A stretch of 64,000 bases of DNA from Alphaproteobacteria bacterium (GTDB taxonomy: Bacteria > Pseudomonadota > Alphaproteobacteria > RF32 > CAG-239), in contig JAZRCM010000011.1 in assembly GCA_045659785.1 (NCBI GenBank), forward strand, positions 4,902 through 68,901. Direction: 5' to 3'. Under the pieces are notes generated by a model that did not search any database, was not told the DNA's origin, and saw only the letters and a list, made by a program, of their open reading frames with translations. Position numbers and translations under genes: made by a program. Positions 13,112 through 24,734 of the stretch are shown piece after piece; the first letter of the stretch is position 1; each line of letters opens with the position of its first letter.

Positions 13112-13150
13112 TAAAGGAGAAAGCTTTATGCTTTCTCCTTTGTTTTTTTT
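13112..13150. terminator. Bidirectional terminator hairpin (aaggagaaagc...gctttctcctt + T run)
   Basis: 11 bp stem between convergent genes. Confidence 0.5.
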
Positions 13151-14621
13151 AGCTAATATTAACAATTCCTCGTGAAAAGGCATATATAGCCCATAAGGCA
13201 ATTACAATCAACAAACAAGCGAGAGCCGCTTCTCCTACCGTAAATGCTTTTTCGTTAGGGGAAGATTGTTTGCGAGCCCATACGAAAACCGGTATTCCGG
13301 CAGCCATAAATATTACGGCCATCAACAGATAGTTCAATCCTGCTGCATAAATAAGCCACAAAGCATAAATTGAACCGATAATTCCGGAGATTAGTGCAAC
13401 CGAGCGTTTGATATAAATGCCCACCGGATATTCTCCATCTTCACATATTTTCCATAAATAAGCACAGCTTGAAAAATATGCCGGTAAAACCATTACACCG
13501 GTAATACTTAACATTGTGTTCCAGGCGTTATTTGAAAAATATACCAATAAAATAAACAACTGCATCATAATACTTGTAATCCATAATGATGTAGATGGAG
13601 CGCCATATTTGTTTTCGGTTGCAAATTGTTTTGGGAAGGTTCCGTTAGATGCGGCGGCTTGCGGAATTTGAGCCGTAATCATAGTCCAAGCCAACCAACT
13701 GGTTAATACCGAAATCAACAATCCGATATTCATTAACCATGCTCCCCATTTGCCGACAACTTTTTCTAAGATTCCGGCAGTTGAGGGATTGGCAACATCC
13801 GCTAATTCAGCTTGTGACATAAAGCCGTAAGGTAAAACCGAAAGCAAAATATAGATACCCAAACAGCCTAAAAATCCCAATAATGTTGCTCTTCCCACTG
13901 TTTTTGGGCTTTTTGCGTGCTGTGATAAAACAACGGCTCCTTCTATACCGATAAATGCCCACAAGGTTACAAGCATCGTACTTTTAATTTGTGTACTTAA
14001 ACCTCCTAAATGTTTGCTGTTTTCTCCCCAGAAATCAAATTCAAATTTATCGAGATGAAAAACAAACATTGAGATTATGATAAACAAAATTAACGGAACG
14101 ATTTTAGCGATTGTTCCGATGGTATTAATCAGAGTTGCTTGTTTTAAGCCGCGCAAAACCAAAAAATTAAATCCCCAAATCAGGATTGAACCGCCGATAA
14201 TCGATGCAAGATTGTTTCCTCCGGCAAAATATGGCGGAAAGAAATAATTTAGTGCATCCATTGTAATAACTGCATATCCGACATTTCCGCATATTTGACA
14301 CAGCCAATATGACCACCCGATAGTAAAACCGACATAAGGGCCGAAACCTTCTCTGCTATACATGTAGATTCCGGCTGTTAAATCCGGTTTTGCCGCAGAT
14401 AAAATGCGAAATGTGTTAGCGATAAAATATACTCCGAAACCGGTGATTGCCCAAGATAAAATTACGGCACCGACAGATGCTCCGGCAGCCATATTTTGCG
14501 GTAAGGAGTATATTCCTCCGCCAATCATTGAACTCACAACAATAGCGGCAAGGGCTAAAACACCTAATCCTCCGCTGTTTGCTGATTTATTATTTAAATT
14601 TGTTTTATTGTTATCAGTCAT
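13149..14621 (-). CDS. APC-superfamily basic amino acid/amine antiporter (AaxC/ArcD-like arginine:agmatine exchanger)
   Basis: About 490 aa, 12-13 TM helices, GGGIYSLPQNMA and FGPYVGFTIGWSYW motifs of the APA/ArcD-type antiporters. Start set at the ATG with a gagga RBS; the ORF track's 14669 start is a TTG. Confidence 0.75.
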   Translation of the reverse strand: MTDNNKTNLNNKSANSGGLGVLALAAIVVSSMIGGGIYSLPQNMAAGASVGAVILSWAITGFGVYFIANTFRILSAAKPDLTAGIYMYSREGFGPYVGFTIGWSYWLCQICGNVGYAVITMDALNYFFPPYFAGGNNLASIIGGSILIWGFNFLVLRGLKQATLINTIGTIAKIVPLILFIIISMFVFHLDKFEFDFWGENSKHLGGLSTQIKSTMLVTLWAFIGIEGAVVLSQHAKSPKTVGRATLLGFLGCLGIYILLSVLPYGFMSQAELADVANPSTAGILEKVVGKWGAWLMNIGLLISVLTSWLAWTMITAQIPQAAASNGTFPKQFATENKYGAPSTSLWITSIMMQLFILLVYFSNNAWNTMLSITGVMVLPAYFSSCAYLWKICEDGEYPVGIYIKRSVALISGIIGSIYALWLIYAAGLNYLLMAVIFMAAGIPVFVWARKQSSPNEKAFTVGEAALACLLIVIALWAIYAFSRGIVNIS

Positions 14622-14751
14622 CTTATAATCCTCATAAAATGATGTTGCTAACGAAAGGAGGCGAAGCAACCTTTACAGATTGTTCCGCCTCTCGTTCGGC
14701 ATTGGTTTCTCAAAATTTTTGAAAATATCAAAAACTGCTATCGAAACCAAT

Positions 14752-15336
14752 TTATGCTACCGTTACAGGGGCTGCATGCTCAAAGTTTAGGAAACCTAAA
14801 CAGGTTAAGCAGTAACCGAATTGTTGGGTTATATTTATATAATTATGGAAGAGCTGGAATTCTGAGTGTTTTGTAACACCTCTGATTTCAAGCTCGTGAT
14901 TCAACGATTTGTTGAGCCACATTTCACAATGCGTGCGAGCAATATCGTCATCGATGAAAGTATCAAAATATTCGACATATTCTGCTGCCCATCCTCCGAT
15001 AAGTTCGCCTTTTGCATCTCTTCCCCAACAAATTCCTACACCGGTGGCAATAGCTTTATGTTCGTCACGGCTTGCACCGTTTCCGGCCATAATAACTTCT
15101 AAAACCGCACCATGTTTGAAATGGTTGACAACTTTGTCAACAGGTACAATGTTGCCATATAATTCTTTCGGCAAAACCGATGTGTACGGAACAATATTAA
15201 AGTTTTCGATTTTTGCTTGTAAAAGAGCCGAGTCATAACAGAAGGTTTCAAACGGCTGTGGGGGAATGCCAACATCAGACTGTCCTGCACCACCGGTTTG
15301 AAAAGCTAAAGTAGGATAACGAACACCTTCGGTCAT
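14752..15336 (-). CDS. pdaD: Pyruvoyl-dependent arginine decarboxylase (PdaD/AaxB family)
   Basis: About 194 aa from the ATG with a perfect aaggag RBS. NIVPYT|SVLPKE matches the Thr/Ser-Ser self-cleavage site that generates the pyruvoyl group in PdaD/AaxB. Size matches this family, not the pyruvoyl histidine decarboxylases (about 310 aa). Confidence 0.7.
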
Positions 15337-15495
15337 ATTTTTTCTCCTTATTAAATTTTTTTTTGAATACAAACAAAAATTAATTACGGATAGTAAAATT
15401 TCAACCGAACCTATACTAATTGCATAGTCATATCTTTTTATTTTCTAAATAGTGAATATATAAGTTTTGTTTGAAATAACTTTAGGGGAATTGAA

Positions 15496-16704
15496 ATGAA
15501 TAAAACTTTAGGATTTTTATTGTTATCCGGTTTGATGGTGTTTTCATCTTCCGTATATGCAGGAGCAAATAAAGGGGCTGTCAAACGAGGAGAAGCTGCA
15601 CAAGAAAGACATAATTGGAGTTTTAGTGAGTTTGGTAATGACTATGCCGAATTTAAAAATAAGCTGAATAAAGATTATGGTTTTAATTATGCGGTAGATG
15701 TTTCTTTTATGCCACAAAGAGGTGCTCCTAACGGAGACAAAACCGCATGGCAAACTATGATTTATCCGAGTTTCAGTTGGACTACATTTAATAATGAATA
15801 CGGAACCGGAACATTGAATTTTGCGTATAATATTGTTCGTTATGGTGGTTCTTCCGCTTCTCGAATCGGTAATAATATCGGTGTAGTCAGCGGAATTAAT
15901 GATTATGCAACAAAATCAAATTCTTTTGATGAACTTTATTATACTTATCAATTTGGAGGTAAAGCAGATTGGCTTACTTTAGCACTGGGTCAATTTCCGA
16001 TTTATAATTTTGACGGAACAGATTATGACTCAAATCAACAGGTTAATTTTATAAATTTTGCCTTATCACAAAATGCCAGCTCAACTTATCCGACTGCAGG
16101 TGTAGGAACTTATGTTCAAATTACACCTAATGATGAGTGGAGTTTTGTATTAGGTGGACAAGATGCAAGTAATGTTGAAGCTATAAGTGTTCGAGTTAAT
16201 GATTTGAAAGATAAACATTTTACAAGTTTTGCTTATGCTTCATATACACCGACGATAAAAAAATTAGGACAAAGCGAAATTTCGGTTTTGTTATACAATC
16301 AACCCGGAGTTAAAGAGCAACCGGAAACAACAAACGGTTGGTCGTTGAATATAAGTCAAAATATCGGTGAGAAGTTTGCTATCTTTGGTAGAGTAAACGG
16401 TGTTTCGGGCAATACTGCCGAAATAAATCAGTCATGGGTGTTAGGCGGAGTTTATAACAATCCGCTAAACCGAAATCCGCTTGACCAAATCGGGCTAGCT
16501 TTTGCGTATAATAAAGTTGATGAAAAAGCAGTCGGAAGCAACTTATCAAGTTCAGCAGAAAAAGTTATCGAAGCTTATTGGGCATGGGGAATTTCAAAAT
16601 GGGCAACGATAACACCGGATATTCAATTTTATATTGATCCCGCTCAAAACTCAAAATCCGATTACGGAACAGTATTGTCGCTTCGTGCAACATTATTTTT
16701 CTGA
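15496..16704 (+). CDS. Outer-membrane porin, OprB/AaxA-like
   Basis: Signal peptide MNKTLGFLLLSGLMVFSSSVYA. About 380-aa mature beta-barrel with alternating-hydrophobic strands. C-terminal ...LRATLFF aromatic terminus. Divergently transcribed from the decarboxylase-antiporter pair. Confidence 0.6.
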   Translation: MNKTLGFLLLSGLMVFSSSVYAGANKGAVKRGEAAQERHNWSFSEFGNDYAEFKNKLNKDYGFNYAVDVSFMPQRGAPNGDKTAWQTMIYPSFSWTTFNNEYGTGTLNFAYNIVRYGGSSASRIGNNIGVVSGINDYATKSNSFDELYYTYQFGGKADWLTLALGQFPIYNFDGTDYDSNQQVNFINFALSQNASSTYPTAGVGTYVQITPNDEWSFVLGGQDASNVEAISVRVNDLKDKHFTSFAYASYTPTIKKLGQSEISVLLYNQPGVKEQPETTNGWSLNISQNIGEKFAIFGRVNGVSGNTAEINQSWVLGGVYNNPLNRNPLDQIGLAFAYNKVDEKAVGSNLSSSAEKVIEAYWAWGISKWATITPDIQFYIDPAQNSKSDYGTVLSLRATLFF

Positions 16705-16726: not shown

Positions 16727-17854
16727 CTAGACTCTGTTTCTGGTGCGACGACGGGTATCTACTGAAGCTAACATCGGAGACTGTTTTACAATATTATGAT
16801 TTTTTCTGTTTTTATCAGTAAAATCATCAATAAAAATTTCTCTCATTTGTGCATTTTCTTCCGCTTTTGCTAGCAACATAGGGCTGATTTCATGGGGGGT
16901 AACTTCTTGAATAGGGGCTTGAATATCCATACCTGCCGATAAATAGTCTTTAATTTGACGAGCTTGTTCAATCGGTAAAATGGTATCTATATTTTCCCAA
17001 TCACCATTAATTAAATTTTCTCTTTCCAAATTTTGCATAATAGCTTTTTTGGTTAATTTTTTCATATGAATAACGATTGCGGTCGAATTTTTTAGCTCTC
17101 TAATACCGTCAATGTTAAAATTTAAGCAATAATGTTTTCCGTTAGTTTTTCCCAAATATTGACGGGCATGTCGGTCACCGTTACTGTTTCTGACCGTAAG
17201 TATAATATCTCCAGGCTCAAGATTGTTATAATTTATACGACCTGATTCCATGCAGTCTTTATATCCTTTTTGTCGTAAATATTCGGCAAAAGCATTGCAG
17301 CCGTTAGCATAACGACATTCTGAACTGTTAGGATCGGGTAAGACGTGAGATAAATCTCCGCCATAAGAATTTGCATCAATCAACGCTCGGTTTAATGCGG
17401 TAATACAATATGGGGTAGTTCCGGGAAGACCACGAACGGGAGAAACAACATCAAAAAAGTTTTCTTTTACATATTTTGTTTTGTTTCCGCAACTTTGGAG
17501 TGCTTCCAAATGATATTTTGCCGACTCTAAAAATTTTGAAATGAACCAATCAGCCCTTCTTTCTACTTCGGCATTTATGTTGAAAACAACCTTTCTTTCA
17601 TAGGCCAACAAATCGTCAGAAGGTTGGTCAAGCATTATGTTATGAGCTAACATTTCGGTATTATCTGGAATGTAATCAGATTGAACAGGATTGGGTGTTT
17701 GTGCCTGAACGTTAGAAATATTAAGAGCCACAGATGCAACGGTAGGCAGCAAAATCTTGCTTCCGGCTTTGATTATTCCATAGCGTTTAACGTAATATTT
17801 TAATTTATTGAGACGCACGAGGGCGGCTGTTTTCTGATTTTTTTTGTTCATCAT
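16727..17854 (-). CDS. Hypothetical protein (possible Cys/His hydrolase)
   Basis: 375 aa with an N-terminal hydrophobic segment. Conserved-looking Cys (TPYCITALNRAL) and His (GDRHARQY) residues. No confident family assignment. Confidence 0.45.
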   Translation of the reverse strand: MMNKKNQKTAALVRLNKLKYYVKRYGIIKAGSKILLPTVASVALNISNVQAQTPNPVQSDYIPDNTEMLAHNIMLDQPSDDLLAYERKVVFNINAEVERRADWFISKFLESAKYHLEALQSCGNKTKYVKENFFDVVSPVRGLPGTTPYCITALNRALIDANSYGGDLSHVLPDPNSSECRYANGCNAFAEYLRQKGYKDCMESGRINYNNLEPGDIILTVRNSNGDRHARQYLGKTNGKHYCLNFNIDGIRELKNSTAIVIHMKKLTKKAIMQNLERENLINGDWENIDTILPIEQARQIKDYLSAGMDIQAPIQEVTPHEISPMLLAKAEENAQMREIFIDDFTDKNRKNHNIVKQSPMLASVDTRRRTRNRV

Positions 17855-18007
17855 TCCCCCTAATTCTTACTTACGGGCGAATTATATACCAAAATGATTG
17901 TTATGTCATTAAAAAATTTTGATAAAAAATGCTTTTTTTCTTTACAAATTTTAGTGTTTGGAAGTAAATTGCATTAACAATGGTTTTTATTTTTTTGAAG
18001 ATAAAAG

Positions 18008-18571
18008 ATGAATAATATTTTTACAAAAACTATACTGATTACTCTTGCCACAGTTTTGATGTGTGCGTGCGCAAACAAAGAAGTTCGTCCCGCGATTGTT
18101 CCGGGAGTTGAAATTAAACGAGAAGAACCTAAGAAAGTCGAACCGATTAAGACTAAAACTCATAAACTGGGAGTTATCGGAGCGATTGAACCGATATATT
18201 TCTTGCCCATGAAAACCCCGTTTAATGCCCGAATTGATACCGGAGCAGAAACATCTGCCGTTGATGTTGAAAATTTAGAATATTTTGAAAGAGACGGGGA
18301 AAAGTGGGTTTCTTTTGATTTGATAAACAGATTAAATAATGAAACACATCATTTTGAAAAGAAAATATATCGCAATCAAAAAGTAAAACGTTCAGAAGGC
18401 AGGGAAGAAAGGTTAGTGGTTTTGATGCAGGTAAAGTTCGGCGGAGAAATTATTAATGCTCAATTCAGCCTTTCGGACAGAGATAAATTCAAATATCAAG
18501 GTTTGGTCGGACGCAACATAATTACCGGTCGAGCGATTGTAGATACAGCAATAAGTAATACACTAAAATAG
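18008..18571 (+). CDS. Retropepsin-like aspartyl peptidase lipoprotein (the family mis-named 'ATP-dependent Zn protease', RimK-associated)
   Basis: Lipoprotein signal ...VLMCACANKE. IDTGAETSAVD D-T/S-G active-site motif. Second half-barrel with GRNIITGRAIVD. Confidence 0.65.
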   Translation: MNNIFTKTILITLATVLMCACANKEVRPAIVPGVEIKREEPKKVEPIKTKTHKLGVIGAIEPIYFLPMKTPFNARIDTGAETSAVDVENLEYFERDGEKWVSFDLINRLNNETHHFEKKIYRNQKVKRSEGREERLVVLMQVKFGGEIINAQFSLSDRDKFKYQGLVGRNIITGRAIVDTAISNTLK

Positions 18572-18583
18572 TCAGGAAAACTA

Positions 18584-20116
18584 ATGTTACAAAAACTTAA
18601 ATCAGTTAGAATGTTATTGGGCATCGGGCTTTTTGCTTCGGTGCTTTTTGCCGCATACAGTATTTATTATAAAATCGAATATTGGGGGTTTAGTTGGGCT
18701 CCGAAACAAAAAACAGCGGTATGGACAATAGAAGCTCATGTCGCCTTTAAGCCTACCGGAACACCCATAAAAGTATCAATAGCCAGACCATCGGCTTCTA
18801 AAGGTTTTAAGGTTTTGGATGAAGATGTCGTTGCTCCTAAATATGATATAGATATGCAAGAAGAAAAAGTTATTTTGACTTCTAAACCTCGCAGTAAAAT
18901 GCAAGATGTGTATTATCGTGTTTTGTTGTACGATAATGTAGAGAGCAGAGGCAAAACGCCGGCACCTAAACCGGAAAAAATTGTTAAACCGATATTAGAT
19001 GAGCAGTCTTTGAGTGTCGCTTATCAAATTTTGGAAACAGCAAAGGGTATAGACGGAGATGAGGTTTGTCAGGTTATAAAACTGTTAAATCAAACTCCTC
19101 CCGATGAAACCGTGCGCTCTTTTATGCCGGAACGTCGCAGCGATAAAGAAACAGCTCAGGCAATTGTTGATTTATTGGCATTGAAAAATATTTCGGCTCG
19201 TATGGTCAGAGGTATAAAATTACAAGAAGATAAAAAAACATTTATGCCGGATGTTATGATTGAGGCATATATGGATAATATGTGGAAAATATATAATCTT
19301 CATACCGGAAAAAAAGGTTTACCGAGTGACTTTATCATTTTTCAAAGAGGTAACCGCCCATTGGTTGATGTGGTCGGGGGAGAAGATTCGGTTATAAAAT
19401 ATTCGGTTATGAAATCCTTAAGCACCTCATATAAAATGGCCGGTCATCGTGCAAAGTTGGCAAATCAGGAAGGACGCTTCGGTTATTCTATTTATAATTT
19501 GCCGCTTAACCAACAAAATGCTTTGAAGTGGTTGATGATATTCCCATTAGCTATTTTGGTAGTAGTTTTGATGCGTAATGTCGTCGGTATTTCTACAATG
19601 GGTACATTTACTCCGATGTTGATTGCAATGTCTTTGGTTGAAACAGGTTTTGTTTATGGTTTGGCCTGTTTCACCATTATTATCGGTATCGGAATTTTGA
19701 TAAGAGCTCTTTTATCACGATTAAATTTATTGTTAGTTCCGAGAATTTCAGCGGTGGTAATTTTTGTTATTATCATAATGCAAATTTTAGCGATTATCGG
19801 CTATAATTGGCAGTTACCGATAGCTTCTTCCGCTTTGTTCTTCCCGATTATTATTACCGCATGGATAATTGAGAGAGCTTCAATAACTTGGGAAGAAGAC
19901 GGAGCAAGAAATGCGTTGAGAGAAATTGTAAACAGTGTATTGGCTGCGATTGTAACTTATTTCGTTATTGTAAATGATACAATCCGTCATATCATGTTTG
20001 CATTTAACGAACTGAATTTAGTGATTTTATTTGTTGTAATGTTGCTTGGTACATATACCGGATATCGTATAACCGAATTAACTCGTTTTGCACCTTTAGC
20101 TAAAAAGGAAAAATAA
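18584..20116 (+). CDS. Inactive transglutaminase-like domain fused to a 7TM domain
   Basis: 510 aa. N-terminal TM, periplasmic transglutaminase-like region, C-terminal cluster of about 7 TM helices. Confidence 0.6.
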   Translation: MLQKLKSVRMLLGIGLFASVLFAAYSIYYKIEYWGFSWAPKQKTAVWTIEAHVAFKPTGTPIKVSIARPSASKGFKVLDEDVVAPKYDIDMQEEKVILTSKPRSKMQDVYYRVLLYDNVESRGKTPAPKPEKIVKPILDEQSLSVAYQILETAKGIDGDEVCQVIKLLNQTPPDETVRSFMPERRSDKETAQAIVDLLALKNISARMVRGIKLQEDKKTFMPDVMIEAYMDNMWKIYNLHTGKKGLPSDFIIFQRGNRPLVDVVGGEDSVIKYSVMKSLSTSYKMAGHRAKLANQEGRFGYSIYNLPLNQQNALKWLMIFPLAILVVVLMRNVVGISTMGTFTPMLIAMSLVETGFVYGLACFTIIIGIGILIRALLSRLNLLLVPRISAVVIFVIIIMQILAIIGYNWQLPIASSALFFPIIITAWIIERASITWEEDGARNALREIVNSVLAAIVTYFVIVNDTIRHIMFAFNELNLVILFVVMLLGTYTGYRITELTRFAPLAKKEK

Positions 20117-21075
20117 TGTTCGGATGGTTTAAAAATTTTGCTACTCCTTCGCAACTTAGAGCTGCCGGTGTTTTAGGTATGAATGCTCGCAATTATGATA
20201 TTATTGCCAAGAGTAACAAACGTCGCTTATATCCTTTGGTTGATGATAAGGTACAAACCAAAAAGTTAGCTAATGAAGTTGGGATTAACACTCCTCGTCT
20301 TATCGGAATAGTGGAAGTTCAAAACGAAGTTGATAAATTTTTGGATTTGGTAAAAGACTATAAAGAATTTGTAATTAAACCAGCTCACGGCTCCGGTGGA
20401 AAAGGTGTTTTGGTTATCAAGCAATATGATGCCGAAAACTTTGTTACCGCTTCTGAAAAAGTTTTAACTTATAACGAGGTGTATCAGCATATTTCCAATA
20501 TTTTGAGCGGACTTTACAGTTTAGGCGGCAAATATGACATTGCTTTGATTGAAGAAATGGTGCACTTTTCCAATCAGTTTCAAGATTTCAGTTATCAAGG
20601 TATTCCTGATGTGCGAGTTATTGTATATCAAGGTTTTCCGGCATTGGCAATGATGCGTTTGGCAACAAAAGAATCGGGAGGCAGAGCAAATTTACACCAA
20701 GGTGCGGTAGGCGTAGGAATTGATGTAAAAACCGGATGTGCGATTTCTGCCGTTTCACACAATTTGCCGATAGCAATTCATCCCGATACTAAAGCCGATT
20801 TAATGGAGTTAAAAGTTCCTTTTTGGCGAGAGCATTTAGAGATTGCGGTTAAAGGTTATGAAATGACCGGATTGGGATATTTAGGTGCAGACATCGTTTT
20901 GGATAAATTTAGAGGTCCGATGATGTTGGAGCTTAATGCCCGCCCCGGTCTGGCAATTCAAATTGCTAACAATCGCGGTTTGCGAAATATTTTAGAAGAC
21001 ATAAAAAATAATTATCCCAAAGGCTTAAATCCGCAACAACGTTTGGATTATGTGTTAGGTGTTGCGAAAGACTAA
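20116..21075 (+). CDS. RimK-like ATP-grasp ligase (alpha-L-glutamate ligase-related protein)
   Basis: N-terminal GMNARNYDIIAKSNKR, ATP-grasp core (KPAHGSGGKGVLVI, ELNARPGLAIQ). ATG overlaps the stop of the upstream gene. Confidence 0.7.
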   Translation: MFGWFKNFATPSQLRAAGVLGMNARNYDIIAKSNKRRLYPLVDDKVQTKKLANEVGINTPRLIGIVEVQNEVDKFLDLVKDYKEFVIKPAHGSGGKGVLVIKQYDAENFVTASEKVLTYNEVYQHISNILSGLYSLGGKYDIALIEEMVHFSNQFQDFSYQGIPDVRVIVYQGFPALAMMRLATKESGGRANLHQGAVGVGIDVKTGCAISAVSHNLPIAIHPDTKADLMELKVPFWREHLEIAVKGYEMTGLGYLGADIVLDKFRGPMMLELNARPGLAIQIANNRGLRNILEDIKNNYPKGLNPQQRLDYVLGVAKD

Positions 21076-21120: not shown

Positions 21121-21726
21121 ATGGCCGAATTACTGGATGATAAAAAAACAGCTAAATTAGAAAAACCGGATACAAAAGAGTTAGGCGGAGCAGATACCAA
21201 AAAACTCACACAAAGCGAAACCAGAGCCAAAAAAGAAAAGGCAAAATATAATGTTAAAGATGCCGAAAATTCTTTGTTGTTAAAGGTTAAAGATGGAGAT
21301 GTTGTGATTGAAATGTATCCTGATGATGCTCCGAATCATGTTGCACGCATTAAAGAATTAGTCAGAGAAGGTTTTTATAACGGCTTAAAATTTCATCGTG
21401 TTATTGAAGGTTTTATGGCGCAGACAGGTTGTCCTTTAGGAACAGGAACCGGTGGAAGCGGTAAAAAATTGAAAGCTGAATTTAATAAACGTCCGCATTT
21501 GCGTGGTACTGTTTCTATGGCAAGAGCTATGGATCCTAACAGTGGTGACAGTCAATTTTTTATCTGTTTTGCCGATGCTCCGTGGTTGAACGGGCAATAT
21601 ACCGTGTGGGGAGAAGTAACTTCAGGTATGGAATATGTTGATATGATAAAACGCGGTGGTGGTGCAAACGGTATGGTGCATAATCCTGATGAAATTATAT
21701 CAATAGATGTAATTGCCGATTTATAA
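21121..21726 (+). CDS. Cyclophilin-type peptidyl-prolyl cis-trans isomerase with a K/E-rich N-terminal extension
   Basis: FHRVIEGFMAQTG, GDSQFFI, WLNGQYTVWGEV cyclophilin motifs. Confidence 0.8.
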   Translation: MAELLDDKKTAKLEKPDTKELGGADTKKLTQSETRAKKEKAKYNVKDAENSLLLKVKDGDVVIEMYPDDAPNHVARIKELVREGFYNGLKFHRVIEGFMAQTGCPLGTGTGGSGKKLKAEFNKRPHLRGTVSMARAMDPNSGDSQFFICFADAPWLNGQYTVWGEVTSGMEYVDMIKRGGGANGMVHNPDEIISIDVIADL

Positions 21727-21756
21727 TATTTATAGCTTTTTTACAGCTTTTACCAA

Positions 21757-21780
21757 ACCGCCTTTTAAAAGGCGGTTTAT
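21757..21780 (+). terminator. Rho-independent terminator (aaaccgccttttaaaaggcggttt)
   Basis: Perfect 9 bp stem after the PPIase gene. Confidence 0.5.
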
Positions 21781-21875: not shown

Positions 21876-24734
21876 ATGACAAAAAGAACACAGTTTTTCA
21901 CTATGTTATTAGCCGGAACTTTTATTACTTCATCGGCAATGGCAGATATTTATAGCGATATTCCGCAGACAGAATTTGGAAGCGGTAATGAAACTAAATA
22001 TTTTGAATGGACGTCTCCTTTTGAGGGAGCTGAAGACCTCTTTGGTTTTATGAGCGAAGTTGATACTCCTACTTCAGGCAAAACCACAGTAACAGCAAAA
22101 TATTCGGAACCGACAGAAACAGAAAGATTGTATATTGATGATGAAGGCGATATTAATGCTAATTTTGTTGATATTGTCAGCGAACAATATACAGATTTTT
22201 ATGGCGGTGCTATTTACAATGAAATGGCTTATGGTAACAACATAAAAGGTACTTTTATCGGTAATATGGCTATGCCGTACATCCAAGGACCTACAAATTT
22301 AACTCCTGAATCTATCGGTGTTAGCCTGATGGAATATACACCATCTTATGATTACGATTCTGCTTGGGGTGGAGCTATCGCAAACGGTCGAGCAGATGCA
22401 GTATTAGGTAATGTTGAAGGCACTTTTATCGGTAATGTTGCTTATGCTGAAGTAAGCGCCGGTGGAGGAGCAATAAGTAACTCCGGACAAATGGGAGATA
22501 TAAAAGGAGATTTTATTGGCAATACGGCGGTTGGAGGTGAGGCTGTTTTTGGCGGTGCAATTGTTACTTCGGCATTTTTGACCGAGTATTACAATCCGAC
22601 CGCATCTTCCGGTACAATTTCGGGTAATTTTTATGGTAATACAGCTATTGCTACTTATGGAGCCGCATTTGGTGGTGCGATAACTGCCGGAAGTTACAAA
22701 GAAATTAATATCGAAAATTCTAACTTCTATAACAATACAGTTGCCGGTGATTATTGGGCACAAGGCGGAGCAATTTATGCTTACAGATTGTCTGAAACCG
22801 ACGGAAGTTGGTTGCCGGTAGTTGTTAAAAATTCTAATTTTTATAACAATGGAGCGATAAGTGGTAACGGGTATGTAACGGTCGGTGGCGCTATTTCTGC
22901 TGACTCAGAATTAACGATTATAAATTCTAACTTTTATAACAATTATGTAATGTCTACATCGCCTAATGGAAATACTATTCCTTTTGGTGGAGCTATAGGT
23001 CTTTTATACGGCAATAAGCTCAATATCTATGCAGATGGAGCAGATTCCGTATTTTCAGGTAACTACATATCTATTCAAGGCGAAAAAATTGATAATGCGA
23101 TTATGACGTCAGGAGATATAAATCTTAATGTTAAAAACAATGGTAAAATCGTTTTTGATGATAGTATAATTGCAGGTGATTTAATGGGAGTTGGGACTAT
23201 TCCTAATTTGAATATTAGTGGCGATAAATGCCCTAATTGTTTGGTAAACAGCGTTATTTTCAATAGTGGTGTTATGGTGCCAGGTAATGTAACTCTTGAT
23301 ACTACACAAATGGTGTTAGGTAAAAATGCGGCGATTTTAGCATATGGGGATTATGAAGCTAAAAATAATCCGATTTTGCGAGTTGAATTAGATGCTTCAA
23401 CCGGAGAAGCCGGAAAACTTTATGCGGGTGATATTAAAGGAACAACAGGAGTTATTGTTGATACCAAAAACTATAAAGATATACGCGGGCAAGGAAGTAT
23501 TTTTTTTGCTGCAGCTGGTGTTGCTGATGGCGAAGCTAATGAAAAATCTTTTGAAATTTTACGCGTAATCGGTTCTCCTTATATGTATAAAATTGATTAT
23601 CAAACAGATATGACGGTAGATATTAGTGGTACATGGTTTGAAAAAATGGAAGGTATAACAGAGGTTGATGTAGCCAAGGCTTGGGGTGTAACAATGACCG
23701 ATGAAGCAAACACCTATACCGAAGACTGCGATCCTAAACCGGAACCACAACCACAACCACAACCACAACCTTTAGGTCCGGTTGAGGTTGCTCCGGAGGT
23801 TATTGCCATGGAAGCATTGCCTTCAGCAGCAGTTGCTCAAACCAGTGGAATGATTTATAACATTATGCGTAAAGTTAATATAAACAGATTATATTGCCCC
23901 GGTTGCGGTTTCTATGACTATAATTGGGACGGCAAACCTTTGCATAATGCTTGGGTAGATACTTTCTATAACGGTTTGGAAATTGATGCTCCGGTTGCTA
24001 TTGATGCTGATGTATGGGGTATTGAAGCCGGTGCTGATATTCAACATGATTTGAGCAACAAACTCGGTATATTCGTATCTTATCGTCAAGGTAATTATGA
24101 AATGGACGGTAAAGGAGACAAATATTATTCAAAATCCGGAAGTGAACTTGATATCGATAGTTATTTAGCCGGATTGTATTATCGTTATGATAATAATAAT
24201 TGGTACGCATTTGCTACTTTGTACGGCGGTATGCAAGAAGCTGAAGTTACAACAGATGACGGTCTTTCCAATTATGATACCGACGGCATAGAATTTGGTG
24301 GAAGCGCTGAAGTAGGTTATAGCTATGCTTTGAACAACACCGTATATGTAACACCAAGTTTAGGTGTATTCTATACTCAAGTAAATTATGATGATGCCAC
24401 AGATAATCTTGGTAAAACCGTCGAATATGATGATTTGAAACAAGTTGAATTAGAGGCTGGTATAAAATTGAGTAAAGCTATTTATACAGACAATGGTGCT
24501 GCAAGCATTTATGTCAAACCTAGTGTTGTTCAAACTTTGGTTGATGGTGATGAGGTTAATATTACCAAAATCGGCAAAGTTGATACAATCGAAGATGAAA
24601 CATTAGGCAGAGTTGAAGTCGGCGGAAACTATGGTTTCAATGACAACTGGTCAGCATACGGTTGGGCTAACTATACCTTCGGCTCAGACTATGAGGCTAC
24701 ATCTCTTGGTTTAGGTGTTAATTATAGTTGGTAA
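21876..24734 (+). CDS. Autotransporter (type Va) with a beta-helical Gly-rich passenger and C-terminal 12-strand barrel
   Basis: Signal peptide. Repeated FGGAI / GGAI(S/T) pectin-lyase-like turns. PEPQPQPQPQP linker. C-terminal barrel ending GLGVNYSW. Confidence 0.75.
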   Translation: MTKRTQFFTMLLAGTFITSSAMADIYSDIPQTEFGSGNETKYFEWTSPFEGAEDLFGFMSEVDTPTSGKTTVTAKYSEPTETERLYIDDEGDINANFVDIVSEQYTDFYGGAIYNEMAYGNNIKGTFIGNMAMPYIQGPTNLTPESIGVSLMEYTPSYDYDSAWGGAIANGRADAVLGNVEGTFIGNVAYAEVSAGGGAISNSGQMGDIKGDFIGNTAVGGEAVFGGAIVTSAFLTEYYNPTASSGTISGNFYGNTAIATYGAAFGGAITAGSYKEINIENSNFYNNTVAGDYWAQGGAIYAYRLSETDGSWLPVVVKNSNFYNNGAISGNGYVTVGGAISADSELTIINSNFYNNYVMSTSPNGNTIPFGGAIGLLYGNKLNIYADGADSVFSGNYISIQGEKIDNAIMTSGDINLNVKNNGKIVFDDSIIAGDLMGVGTIPNLNISGDKCPNCLVNSVIFNSGVMVPGNVTLDTTQMVLGKNAAILAYGDYEAKNNPILRVELDASTGEAGKLYAGDIKGTTGVIVDTKNYKDIRGQGSIFFAAAGVADGEANEKSFEILRVIGSPYMYKIDYQTDMTVDISGTWFEKMEGITEVDVAKAWGVTMTDEANTYTEDCDPKPEPQPQPQPQPLGPVEVAPEVIAMEALPSAAVAQTSGMIYNIMRKVNINRLYCPGCGFYDYNWDGKPLHNAWVDTFYNGLEIDAPVAIDADVWGIEAGADIQHDLSNKLGIFVSYRQGNYEMDGKGDKYYSKSGSELDIDSYLAGLYYRYDNNNWYAFATLYGGMQEAEVTTDDGLSNYDTDGIEFGGSAEVGYSYALNNTVYVTPSLGVFYTQVNYDDATDNLGKTVEYDDLKQVELEAGIKLSKAIYTDNGAASIYVKPSVVQTLVDGDEVNITKIGKVDTIEDETLGRVEVGGNYGFNDNWSAYGWANYTFGSDYEATSLGLGVNYSW
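23745..23770 (+). repeat. Coding (ccacaa)n hexanucleotide microsatellite encoding the PQPQPQPQ linker of the autotransporter
   Basis: Four to five tandem ccacaa units read directly. The repeat length is a multiple of 3, so frame is kept. Confidence 0.6.

Follow-up and report, generated by a model that had tools for sequence, protein, structure and literature searches.

The three genes found at positions 18008–21075 of the analysed DNA (a 64-kb stretch, hereafter the window, from an alphaproteobacterial lineage of metagenome-assembled genomes, MAGs) are almost certainly a divergent orthologue of the rloABC operon. This assignment is based on the matches of the three proteins to family models, on their alignment with full-length homologues, and on the occurrence of the same A-B-C gene order in 75 of 80 diverse RloB-carrying genomes; the E-values, together with the conservation of the triad in other genomes, exclude a chance resemblance. 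The system is a known one, since it has already been named, is modelled in Pfam and NCBIfam and is partly characterised, and the copy in the window is a new, divergent member.

In a mechanical list of open reading frames (ORFs), rloA spans 18008–18571 (187 amino acids), rloB 18584–20116 (510 amino acids) and rloC 20116–21075 (319 amino acids), all on the forward strand. These are exactly the coordinates given in the initial annotation, which had described three co-directional and tightly spaced genes. Twelve nucleotides separate rloA from rloB, and they include a Shine–Dalgarno-like AGGAAA. The junction between rloB and rloC reads AAATAATGTTCG: the TAA stop (20114–20116) and the ATG start (20116–20118) share one nucleotide (TAATG), and not four, as was implied by the ATGA overlap initially described. 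The co-directional order of the genes matches that published for rloABC. None of the three genes has a paralogue elsewhere within the window, where no RloA2- or RloA3-like gene is visible either.

The rloABC genes were named and genetically studied in Pseudomonas aeruginosa (Lormand et al., mBio 2025, PMC12239564), where they correspond to PA1768-PA1767-PA1766 in PAO1 and to the PA14_41710/41730 region. RloA proteins are secreted retropepsin-like dimers whose crystal structures have been solved; in vitro, RloA cuts stretches of 8 or more consecutive glutamates in a reaction that needs D48, K46, R114 and R137, and mutating the basic residues that bind polyglutamate abolishes both the cleavage and the complementation (PMC12239564). 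A pair of disulfide-forming cysteines is conserved in the periplasmic RloA orthologues (PMC12239564). Without salt in the medium, the triple RloA protease mutant does not survive; its shape, its biofilms and its tolerance to beta-lactams are also impaired, and the deletion of rloB or rloC rescues it (PMC12239564). What RloA naturally cleaves and what RloB and RloC do is still undefined (PMC12239564), so that the initial annotation was right to say that no natural substrate or product had been established, but its description of the system as a purely computational prediction is outdated by the Pseudomonas genetics, structures and in vitro cleavage.

The locus in the window and the P. aeruginosa operon have in common the domain architecture of each of the three proteins, the order of the genes, the predicted compartments, the DTGA motif and the basic residues of RloA, and a RloC that matches TIGR02291. 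They differ in that the RloA of the window is a predicted lipoprotein that lacks the two disulfide cysteines, in that a cyclophilin gene is appended to the operon, and in the host, which belongs to an alphaproteobacterial lineage while P. aeruginosa is a gammaproteobacterium; the proteins are also very divergent.

The conservation of the neighbourhood, which had been anticipated in the initial annotation, is confirmed by the comparison with other genomes. A representative library contained 1,676 RloB-related clusters at 50% identity, 383 of them at E ≤ 1e-30, and a scan of one genome per species gave more than 600 matches, of which the best 80 were examined. These 80 loci span Victivallales, Phycisphaerae, Nitrosomonas, many Gammaproteobacteria, Desulfobacterales and Opitutales/Coraliomargarita. 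The triad is carried by 75 of them, where tblastn with the window proteins detects RloA upstream of RloB and RloC downstream of it, all in the same orientation. As for the other five loci, two or three are situated at the end of a contig. The pattern used in the scan (GTF[MT]P[IV]L....) leaves out the sequence of the window (GTFTPMLIAM), hence the alphaproteobacterial clade itself, so that the scan gives no frequency of the operon in Alphaproteobacteria. None of the other neighbours in the window is linked to the triad in the 80 genomes, so that the triad is a self-contained module. It occurs in only three records of a plasmid collection, which argues that the module is not a mobile element. 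The 54-kb plasmid 5 of Legionella adelaidensis (NZ_LR134414.1, 29382–32310; locus L088), carries the full triad next to two genes encoding C1 family peptidases; its protease is annotated as a 'RimK/LysX family protein', which seems to be a mis-annotation.

Features of the three proteins

Searches with hidden Markov models returned the families predicted for each of the three proteins, and not unrelated ones. RloA matches PF05618 at E = 2.3e-28, a family which is called 'Zn_protease' in Pfam but is retropepsin-like. In NCBIfam, it matches 'retropepsin-like aspartic peptidase RloA3' (1.6e-29) and RimB (5e-16), with scores that stay below the cut-offs of these models (103 bits for a cut-off of 210 in the case of the RloA model, 58.8 bits for a cut-off of 200 in the case of RimB). 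RloB is likewise matched over its full length by the NCBIfam model 'osmotic stress tolerance membrane protein RloB', at 262 bits for a cut-off of 900. These models are narrow, and we consider that the low scores of RloA and RloB reflect divergence rather than membership of a different family.

RloA is predicted to consist of a signal peptide with a lipobox (residues 1–21), a charged linker (22–55) and a protease domain (56–181). Its N-terminus, MNNIFTKTILITLATVLMCAC, which ends in LMCAC, satisfies a PROSITE-type lipobox rule, as a pattern match, with Cys21 as the lipobox cysteine, and the protein is predicted to be exported and lipid-anchored in the periplasm. The DTGAETS motif occupies residues 77–83 (nucleotides 18236–18256), D77 of DTGA being the predicted catalytic residue. 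The description of the first gene as encoding a lipoprotein with an aspartyl-protease motif thus holds.

The PDB entries matched by RloA are 9g59, 9g58 and 2pma, with E-values from 5e-7 to 4e-12. They belong to the same PF05618 fold family (2pma is a Legionella pneumophila protein that resembles RloA, 9g58 and 9g59 are RloA), and the whole protease domain aligns with them, including DTGA and two arginines; unlike them, the RloA of the window possesses a lipobox as well as a charged linker of 35 residues, and the sequence similarity is low. Through 9g59 and 9g58, R75, R135 and R158 align to K46, R114 and R137 of P. aeruginosa RloA. Among 76 operon-linked RloA homologues, the D, T and G of the motif are invariant (76/76), the A is found in 73, 75 have R or K at position 75, and R135 and R158 are retained in 75 and 74 of them, respectively. 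Judging from these alignments, the RloA of the window keeps every residue expected for activity.

The only cysteines of RloA are C19 and C21, which belong to the signal peptide and the lipobox; the mature part has none, and the disulfide pair of the periplasmic orthologues is therefore missing. Many lipobox-type orthologues elsewhere also lack cysteines in their mature part, so that on sequence grounds this absence is a feature of a subtype and not a criterion for exclusion. A lipobox-like motif is present in about two-thirds of the operon-linked homologues (49/76, an approximate count, as is any count of RloA forms here, because the start codons were picked automatically), and several of these have no mature cysteine. 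Across taxa (L005–L084), lipobox forms, often devoid of mature cysteines, alternate with forms that have a plain signal peptide and exactly two cysteines. The RloA copies of Endozoicomonas are longer, about 390 amino acids, with an extra C-terminal region.

RloB matches PF14400 (Transglut_i_TM, 1.7e-25) and PF14402 (7TM_transglut, 1.6e-80), in agreement with the periplasmic transglutaminase-like region and the bundle of seven transmembrane (TM) segments that had been recognised in the second gene. The hydropathy profile shows a basic N-terminus, one TM segment (10–28), a loop of 289 residues, seven hydrophobic segments (318–488) and a basic tail, from which the predicted parts are the N-terminal TM segment, a transglutaminase-like domain (about 29–300), the 7TM bundle (about 318–488) and a conserved cytoplasmic tail. 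According to the positive-inside rule, the N-terminus and the tail are predicted to be cytoplasmic and the loop periplasmic. An AlphaFold2 model calculated with 57 homologues has a predicted local distance difference test score (pLDDT) of 76.6 and a predicted template-modelling score (pTM) of 0.50.

When 35 diverse members of the family are aligned, the transglutaminase-like domain shows no conserved cysteine, histidine or aspartate, and by this alignment the domain is catalytically inactive. TgpA from P. aeruginosa (6g4h), the protein 3isr from Cytophaga hutchinsonii and other membrane-anchored transglutaminase-like proteins keep a Cys-His-Asp active site; RloB differs from TgpA and 3isr in this respect and also in its TM module, PF14402. 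On the contrary, the 23 positions that are invariant in the same alignment all lie within or beside the 7TM part. They include R331, GTFxP (340–344), R374, R387, E430, R431, E438, E476 and Y491/G493/R501/F502. In the predicted topology, most of the invariant residues face the cytoplasm, including the charged residues R331, R374, R387, E430, R431, E438 and R501.

RloC passes the cut-off of TIGR02291, 'alpha-L-glutamate ligase-like protein' (409 bits for a cut-off of 314), which agrees with the proposal that the third gene encodes an ATP-grasp of the RimK/alpha-L-glutamate-ligase type. The models of RimK itself are missed (52 bits for a cut-off of 143 with TIGR00768, 24 for a cut-off of 331 with PRK10446), and in Pfam ATPgrasp_ST (PF14397) comes first, at 8e-87, the RimK family PF08443 being matched at only 9e-12. 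The motifs of ATP-grasp enzymes are intact: K88 (in FVIKP), the GSGGKG loop, D165/R167, N192/H194 (in ANLHQGA), D259 and E272/N274/R276, and they are invariant in 23 sequences from several phyla. The protein is annotated without a signal peptide and is predicted to be cytoplasmic. Among solved structures, the RloC profile is closest to RimK (5.7e-7), followed by cyanophycin synthetase (1.7e-5) and by the tubulin polyglutamylase TTLL7 (1.5e-3), all three being enzymes that extend a peptide chain by successive additions of amino acids.

The comparison with L001, a relative that is 93% identical, gives synonymous to non-synonymous codon differences of 55:12 for rloA, 151:36 for rloB and 86:7 for rloC. 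The synonymous changes far exceed the others, and by this comparison all three genes are under purifying selection.

A possible mechanism and its alternatives

We propose that RloC polymerises, RloB delivers and RloA trims. RloC, as a RimK-related cytoplasmic ligase, would use ATP to make an acidic chain of the alpha-linked polyglutamate type, either free or on an acceptor. It would act at the cytoplasmic face of RloB, where nearly all of the family-invariant residues of RloB cluster. RloB would pass the product to the periplasm, or present it there, its catalytically dead transglutaminase-like domain serving as a binding module. RloA, as a periplasmic dimer of the retropepsin type with a lipid anchor and a basic channel for its substrate, would then cut the acidic chain and limit its length or its amount. 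The balance between synthesis by RloBC and cleavage by RloA would shape the tolerance to low osmolarity, the shape of the cell and the resistance to cell-wall antibiotics. We hold this mechanism, taken as a whole, tentatively; its probability comes close to even without going beyond it.

In support of this mechanism, the nearest solved relatives of RloC are all chain-extending amino-acid ligases, which argues that RloC is one too, and the epistasis in Pseudomonas, where the loss of rloB or rloC rescues the loss of the proteases, fits with a toxic or excessive product of RloBC which RloA removes. The polyglutamate cleavage and the epistasis were established in Pseudomonas; adding to them the identification of the genes, the preserved motifs, the topology and the conservation described here, we infer which reaction RloC catalyses, that RloB transports the product, and what this product is. 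The pairing of a non-ribosomal polymerase with a dedicated hydrolase has precedents in cyanophycin synthetase and cyanophycinase, and in PgsBCA with PgdS or CapD, where the membrane components of Pgs export the polymer. RloBC and RloA would share this logic of synthetase and hydrolase, but neither of these systems has a 7TM-transglutaminase protein or a retropepsin; moreover, PgsB is of the Mur-ligase type and not an ATP-grasp, it makes gamma linkages, and cyanophycin stays in the cytoplasm.

Several observations weigh against this proposal. The likeness of RloC to RimK is weak when single sequences are compared (E = 1e-4), and RloC has about 40 residues where the N-domain of RimK has about 95, so that the recognition of the acceptor must differ. 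The best Pfam family of RloC is described as 'sugar-transfer associated ATP-grasp', so that neither the ligated amino acid nor the acceptor is established. A product of RloC has yet to be detected in any organism, and the authors of the Pseudomonas study also weigh targets related to peptidoglycan (PMC12239564).

A bolder version of the same idea may be formulated, which we consider rather improbable. RloBC would be a hitherto unrecognised, ribosome-free route to a periplasmic polypeptide, in which an ATP-grasp polymerase is docked on the conserved cytoplasmic side of a dedicated 7TM translocase whose bundle resembles the ion-translocating subunits RnfA/NqrE. Poly-alpha-glutamate would be extruded as a fixed polyanion in the periplasm, with a function analogous to that of osmoregulated periplasmic glucans, and its length would be set by the retropepsin; in the gut clade to which the window belongs, the cyclophilin with its conserved charged extension would have joined the system as its fourth component.

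The main rival of the polymerise-deliver-trim mechanism is a system that modifies the cell wall or the envelope: RloC would modify a peptidoglycan precursor or an envelope component, RloB would bind or flip it by means of its transglutaminase-like, peptide-binding domain, and RloA would process a wall component or a regulator of a synthase or hydrolase. The shape defects and the sensitivity to cell-wall antibiotics of the P. aeruginosa triple protease mutant go in this direction, and the authors of that study raise the question of peptidoglycan homeostasis; in addition, the orthologues of Vibrio cholerae belong to the VxrAB regulon, which responds to cell-wall damage, and a rloB mutant of Shewanella makes excess membrane vesicles. 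The logic of D-Ala-D-Ala ligase (Ddl) and Mur-type ligases is also known for ATP-grasp enzymes, and RloC has weak Ddl matches in NCBIfam, but these are far below its matches to RimK or TIGR02291. The requirement of RloA for at least 8 consecutive glutamates, and the conservation here of its basic channel, do not fit well with a wall substrate: we know of no peptidoglycan stem peptide with such a run of glutamates. In none of the 80 genomes is a murein gene linked with the triad. We consider this explanation unlikely, if by no means negligible.

According to a second alternative, the operon encodes a signalling module in which RloB is a 7TM receptor that senses a ligand in the envelope, while RloC and RloA only tune it, for instance by modifying and de-modifying RloB or a partner. 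The architecture of RloB, which combines an extracytoplasmic domain of the ligand-binding type with seven TM segments, would suit a receptor, as would the strictly conserved residues of its cytoplasmic face and tail and the pleiotropic phenotypes in Pseudomonas. On the contrary, no output domain and no linked regulator was found, either in the window or at the 80 other loci, and an ATP-consuming ligase opposed by a protease on the other side of the membrane is easier to understand if a product crosses the membrane. A signalling role is in our opinion improbable.

The protease and the ligase are homologous to RimB and RimK, and it could be thought that the locus is an ordinary RimB-RimK system for the polyglutamylation of the ribosomal protein S6 in the cytoplasm. 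In the RimABK system, described in Pseudomonas and E. coli, the ATP-grasp ligase RimK makes poly-alpha-L-glutamate and a retropepsin-like protease cuts it (PMC11957791), which is indeed the same pair of activities as that proposed for RloC and RloA. However, all the Rim proteins reside in the cytoplasm, without any membrane partner, whereas the protease of the window carries a lipoprotein signal and is predicted to be exported, and the gene for a protein with eight TM segments, rloB, lies between those for the protease and the ligase. The RimK models are missed widely, the score with the RimB model is also below its cut-off, and deletion of rimB in Pseudomonas shows no interaction with the rloA deletions. 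This reading is effectively refuted.

Last, ATP-grasp enzymes and proteases co-occur in graspetide clusters, but a pathway for a ribosomally synthesised and post-translationally modified peptide, or an anti-phage defence module, is hardly credible here, given that there is no precursor gene (the sole small ORF upstream, 17894–17977, 27 amino acids, is not conserved), no meaningful PADLOC match, a surrounding of housekeeping genes, and a triad that is almost never found on plasmids.

The operon in its host lineage

NCBI gives the best matches of RloB, at 93%, 75% and 72% identity, the name 'MAG: UUP1 family membrane protein [Alphaproteobacteria bacterium]', and the taxonomy of the clade rests on such labels of near-identical MAG proteins. 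The clade is compact: it comprises at least 120 distinct metagenome clusters at 90% identity, with 58–93% identity to RloB, and the next representative is at 44%, the identity to anything outside the clade being at most 41–44%. The initial annotation had described the module as uncommon in small genomes of host-associated Alphaproteobacteria; the number of distinct clusters indicates that, at the level of sequence collections, the operon is common within its own lineage. Sample names such as XIEF21…METAG suggest that the clade comes from animal-gut metagenomes. The order rloA-rloB-rloC is kept in all close relatives.

Two features characterise this clade according to the sequences compared, the lipoprotein RloA devoid of disulfide cysteines and a cyclophilin gene after rloC. 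The latter (21121–21726, forward strand) encodes a cyclophilin-type peptidyl-prolyl isomerase (PF00160, 2.7e-42). It starts 45 nucleotides after rloC with no terminator-like site in between, and it is probably co-transcribed with the rlo operon. The gene lies directly 3′ of rloC in six of seven distinct clade contexts, including contexts in which both flanks are rearranged; beside the triad, it was not found in the 80 diverse genomes outside the clade. The protein has an N-terminal extension of about 50 residues which is charged, rich in Lys, Glu and Thr, devoid of a signal peptide, and conserved in sequence across the clade (it is seen in the window, L001, L085, L086, L087, L090 and L091). 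As far as gene order tells, the cyclophilin is a clade-specific companion that stands outside the universal triad; it may be a fourth member of the operon or merely inherited synteny. A terminator-like hairpin at 21755–21778 (forward strand), with a 10-bp stem containing five GC pairs and a T-rich tail, probably ends the transcription unit.

A candidate promoter of the operon is found at 17941–17970 on the forward strand (TTTACA, 18 nucleotides, TAAATT, with a T-run before; 9/12 in a consensus scan). The score alone is weak, because the scan finds no more sites than in shuffled sequence. The spacer upstream of rloA is 95% identical to that of L001, compared with 86–90% for the genes, and its sole part that is conserved across the clade members L001, L085, L086 and L087 is the T-run with the (C)TTTACA box, which resembles a −35 element. 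Considering this conserved box together with the consensus scan, the site at 17941–17970 is probably the promoter, and the conserved spacer probably a promoter region rather than a new element. We also considered the spacer as a leader RNA, for which Rfam gave chance-level matches only, and as a small peptide gene: the 27-amino acid ORF at 17894–17977 loses its stop codon and changes in sequence in the closest relatives.

The window is otherwise an ordinary piece of chromosome, with spoT, lepB-rnc-era, an RND pump, formate–tetrahydrofolate ligase, plsX-fabH, and ruvB with tolQ. A divergently transcribed gene on the reverse strand (16727–17854), preceded by a strong promoter-like site at 17909–17881, encodes a protein of 375 amino acids that has no match in Pfam or NCBIfam. 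The identity of this protein drops to about 85% in relatives that reach 94–99% in the neighbouring proteins, which suggests that it evolves faster. In L086, L087 and L090, the same position is held by proteins of similar length whose relationship to it is not established.

Just upstream of the rlo genes, the region 13149–16704 contains an arginine decarboxylation set of the AaxABC type known from Chlamydia: an amino-acid permease (13149–14669, reverse strand), a pyruvoyl-dependent arginine decarboxylase (14752–15372, reverse strand; PF01862, 1.3e-24) and a porin of the OprB family that resembles AaxA (15496–16704, forward strand; NF051888, 296 bits, below the cut-off of 600). The AaxA-like porin remains near the rlo genes in several members of the clade, even without the decarboxylase. 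On the other side, between the terminator of the cyclophilin gene and the genes of the RND pump, lies a gene for an autotransporter of 952 amino acids (21876–24734; PF03797, 1.8e-30) with a PQPQPQPQP linker. It is missing from the relatives L001 and L002 (both 93% identical), where the cyclophilin gene is directly followed by that of the membrane-fusion protein of the pump, and from this comparison it looks like a strain-specific insertion.

The window adds no new principle to what is known of RloABC; it shows that an intact module is maintained in a distant lineage of uncultured Alphaproteobacteria. What the system produces matters, since in P. aeruginosa the system has effects on the tolerance to antibiotics, on the formation of biofilms and on osmotic survival. 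For work on the family, the invariant residues on the cytoplasmic face of the 7TM bundle of RloB, and the lipoprotein and soluble forms of RloA that alternate among taxa, provide handles. Intact triads are present in Planctomycetota, in groups related to Verrucomicrobiota, in Desulfobacterales and in Nitrosomonas, a range that extends beyond the emphasis of the literature on Gammaproteobacteria and that argues for a general function in the envelope rather than one specific to Pseudomonas.

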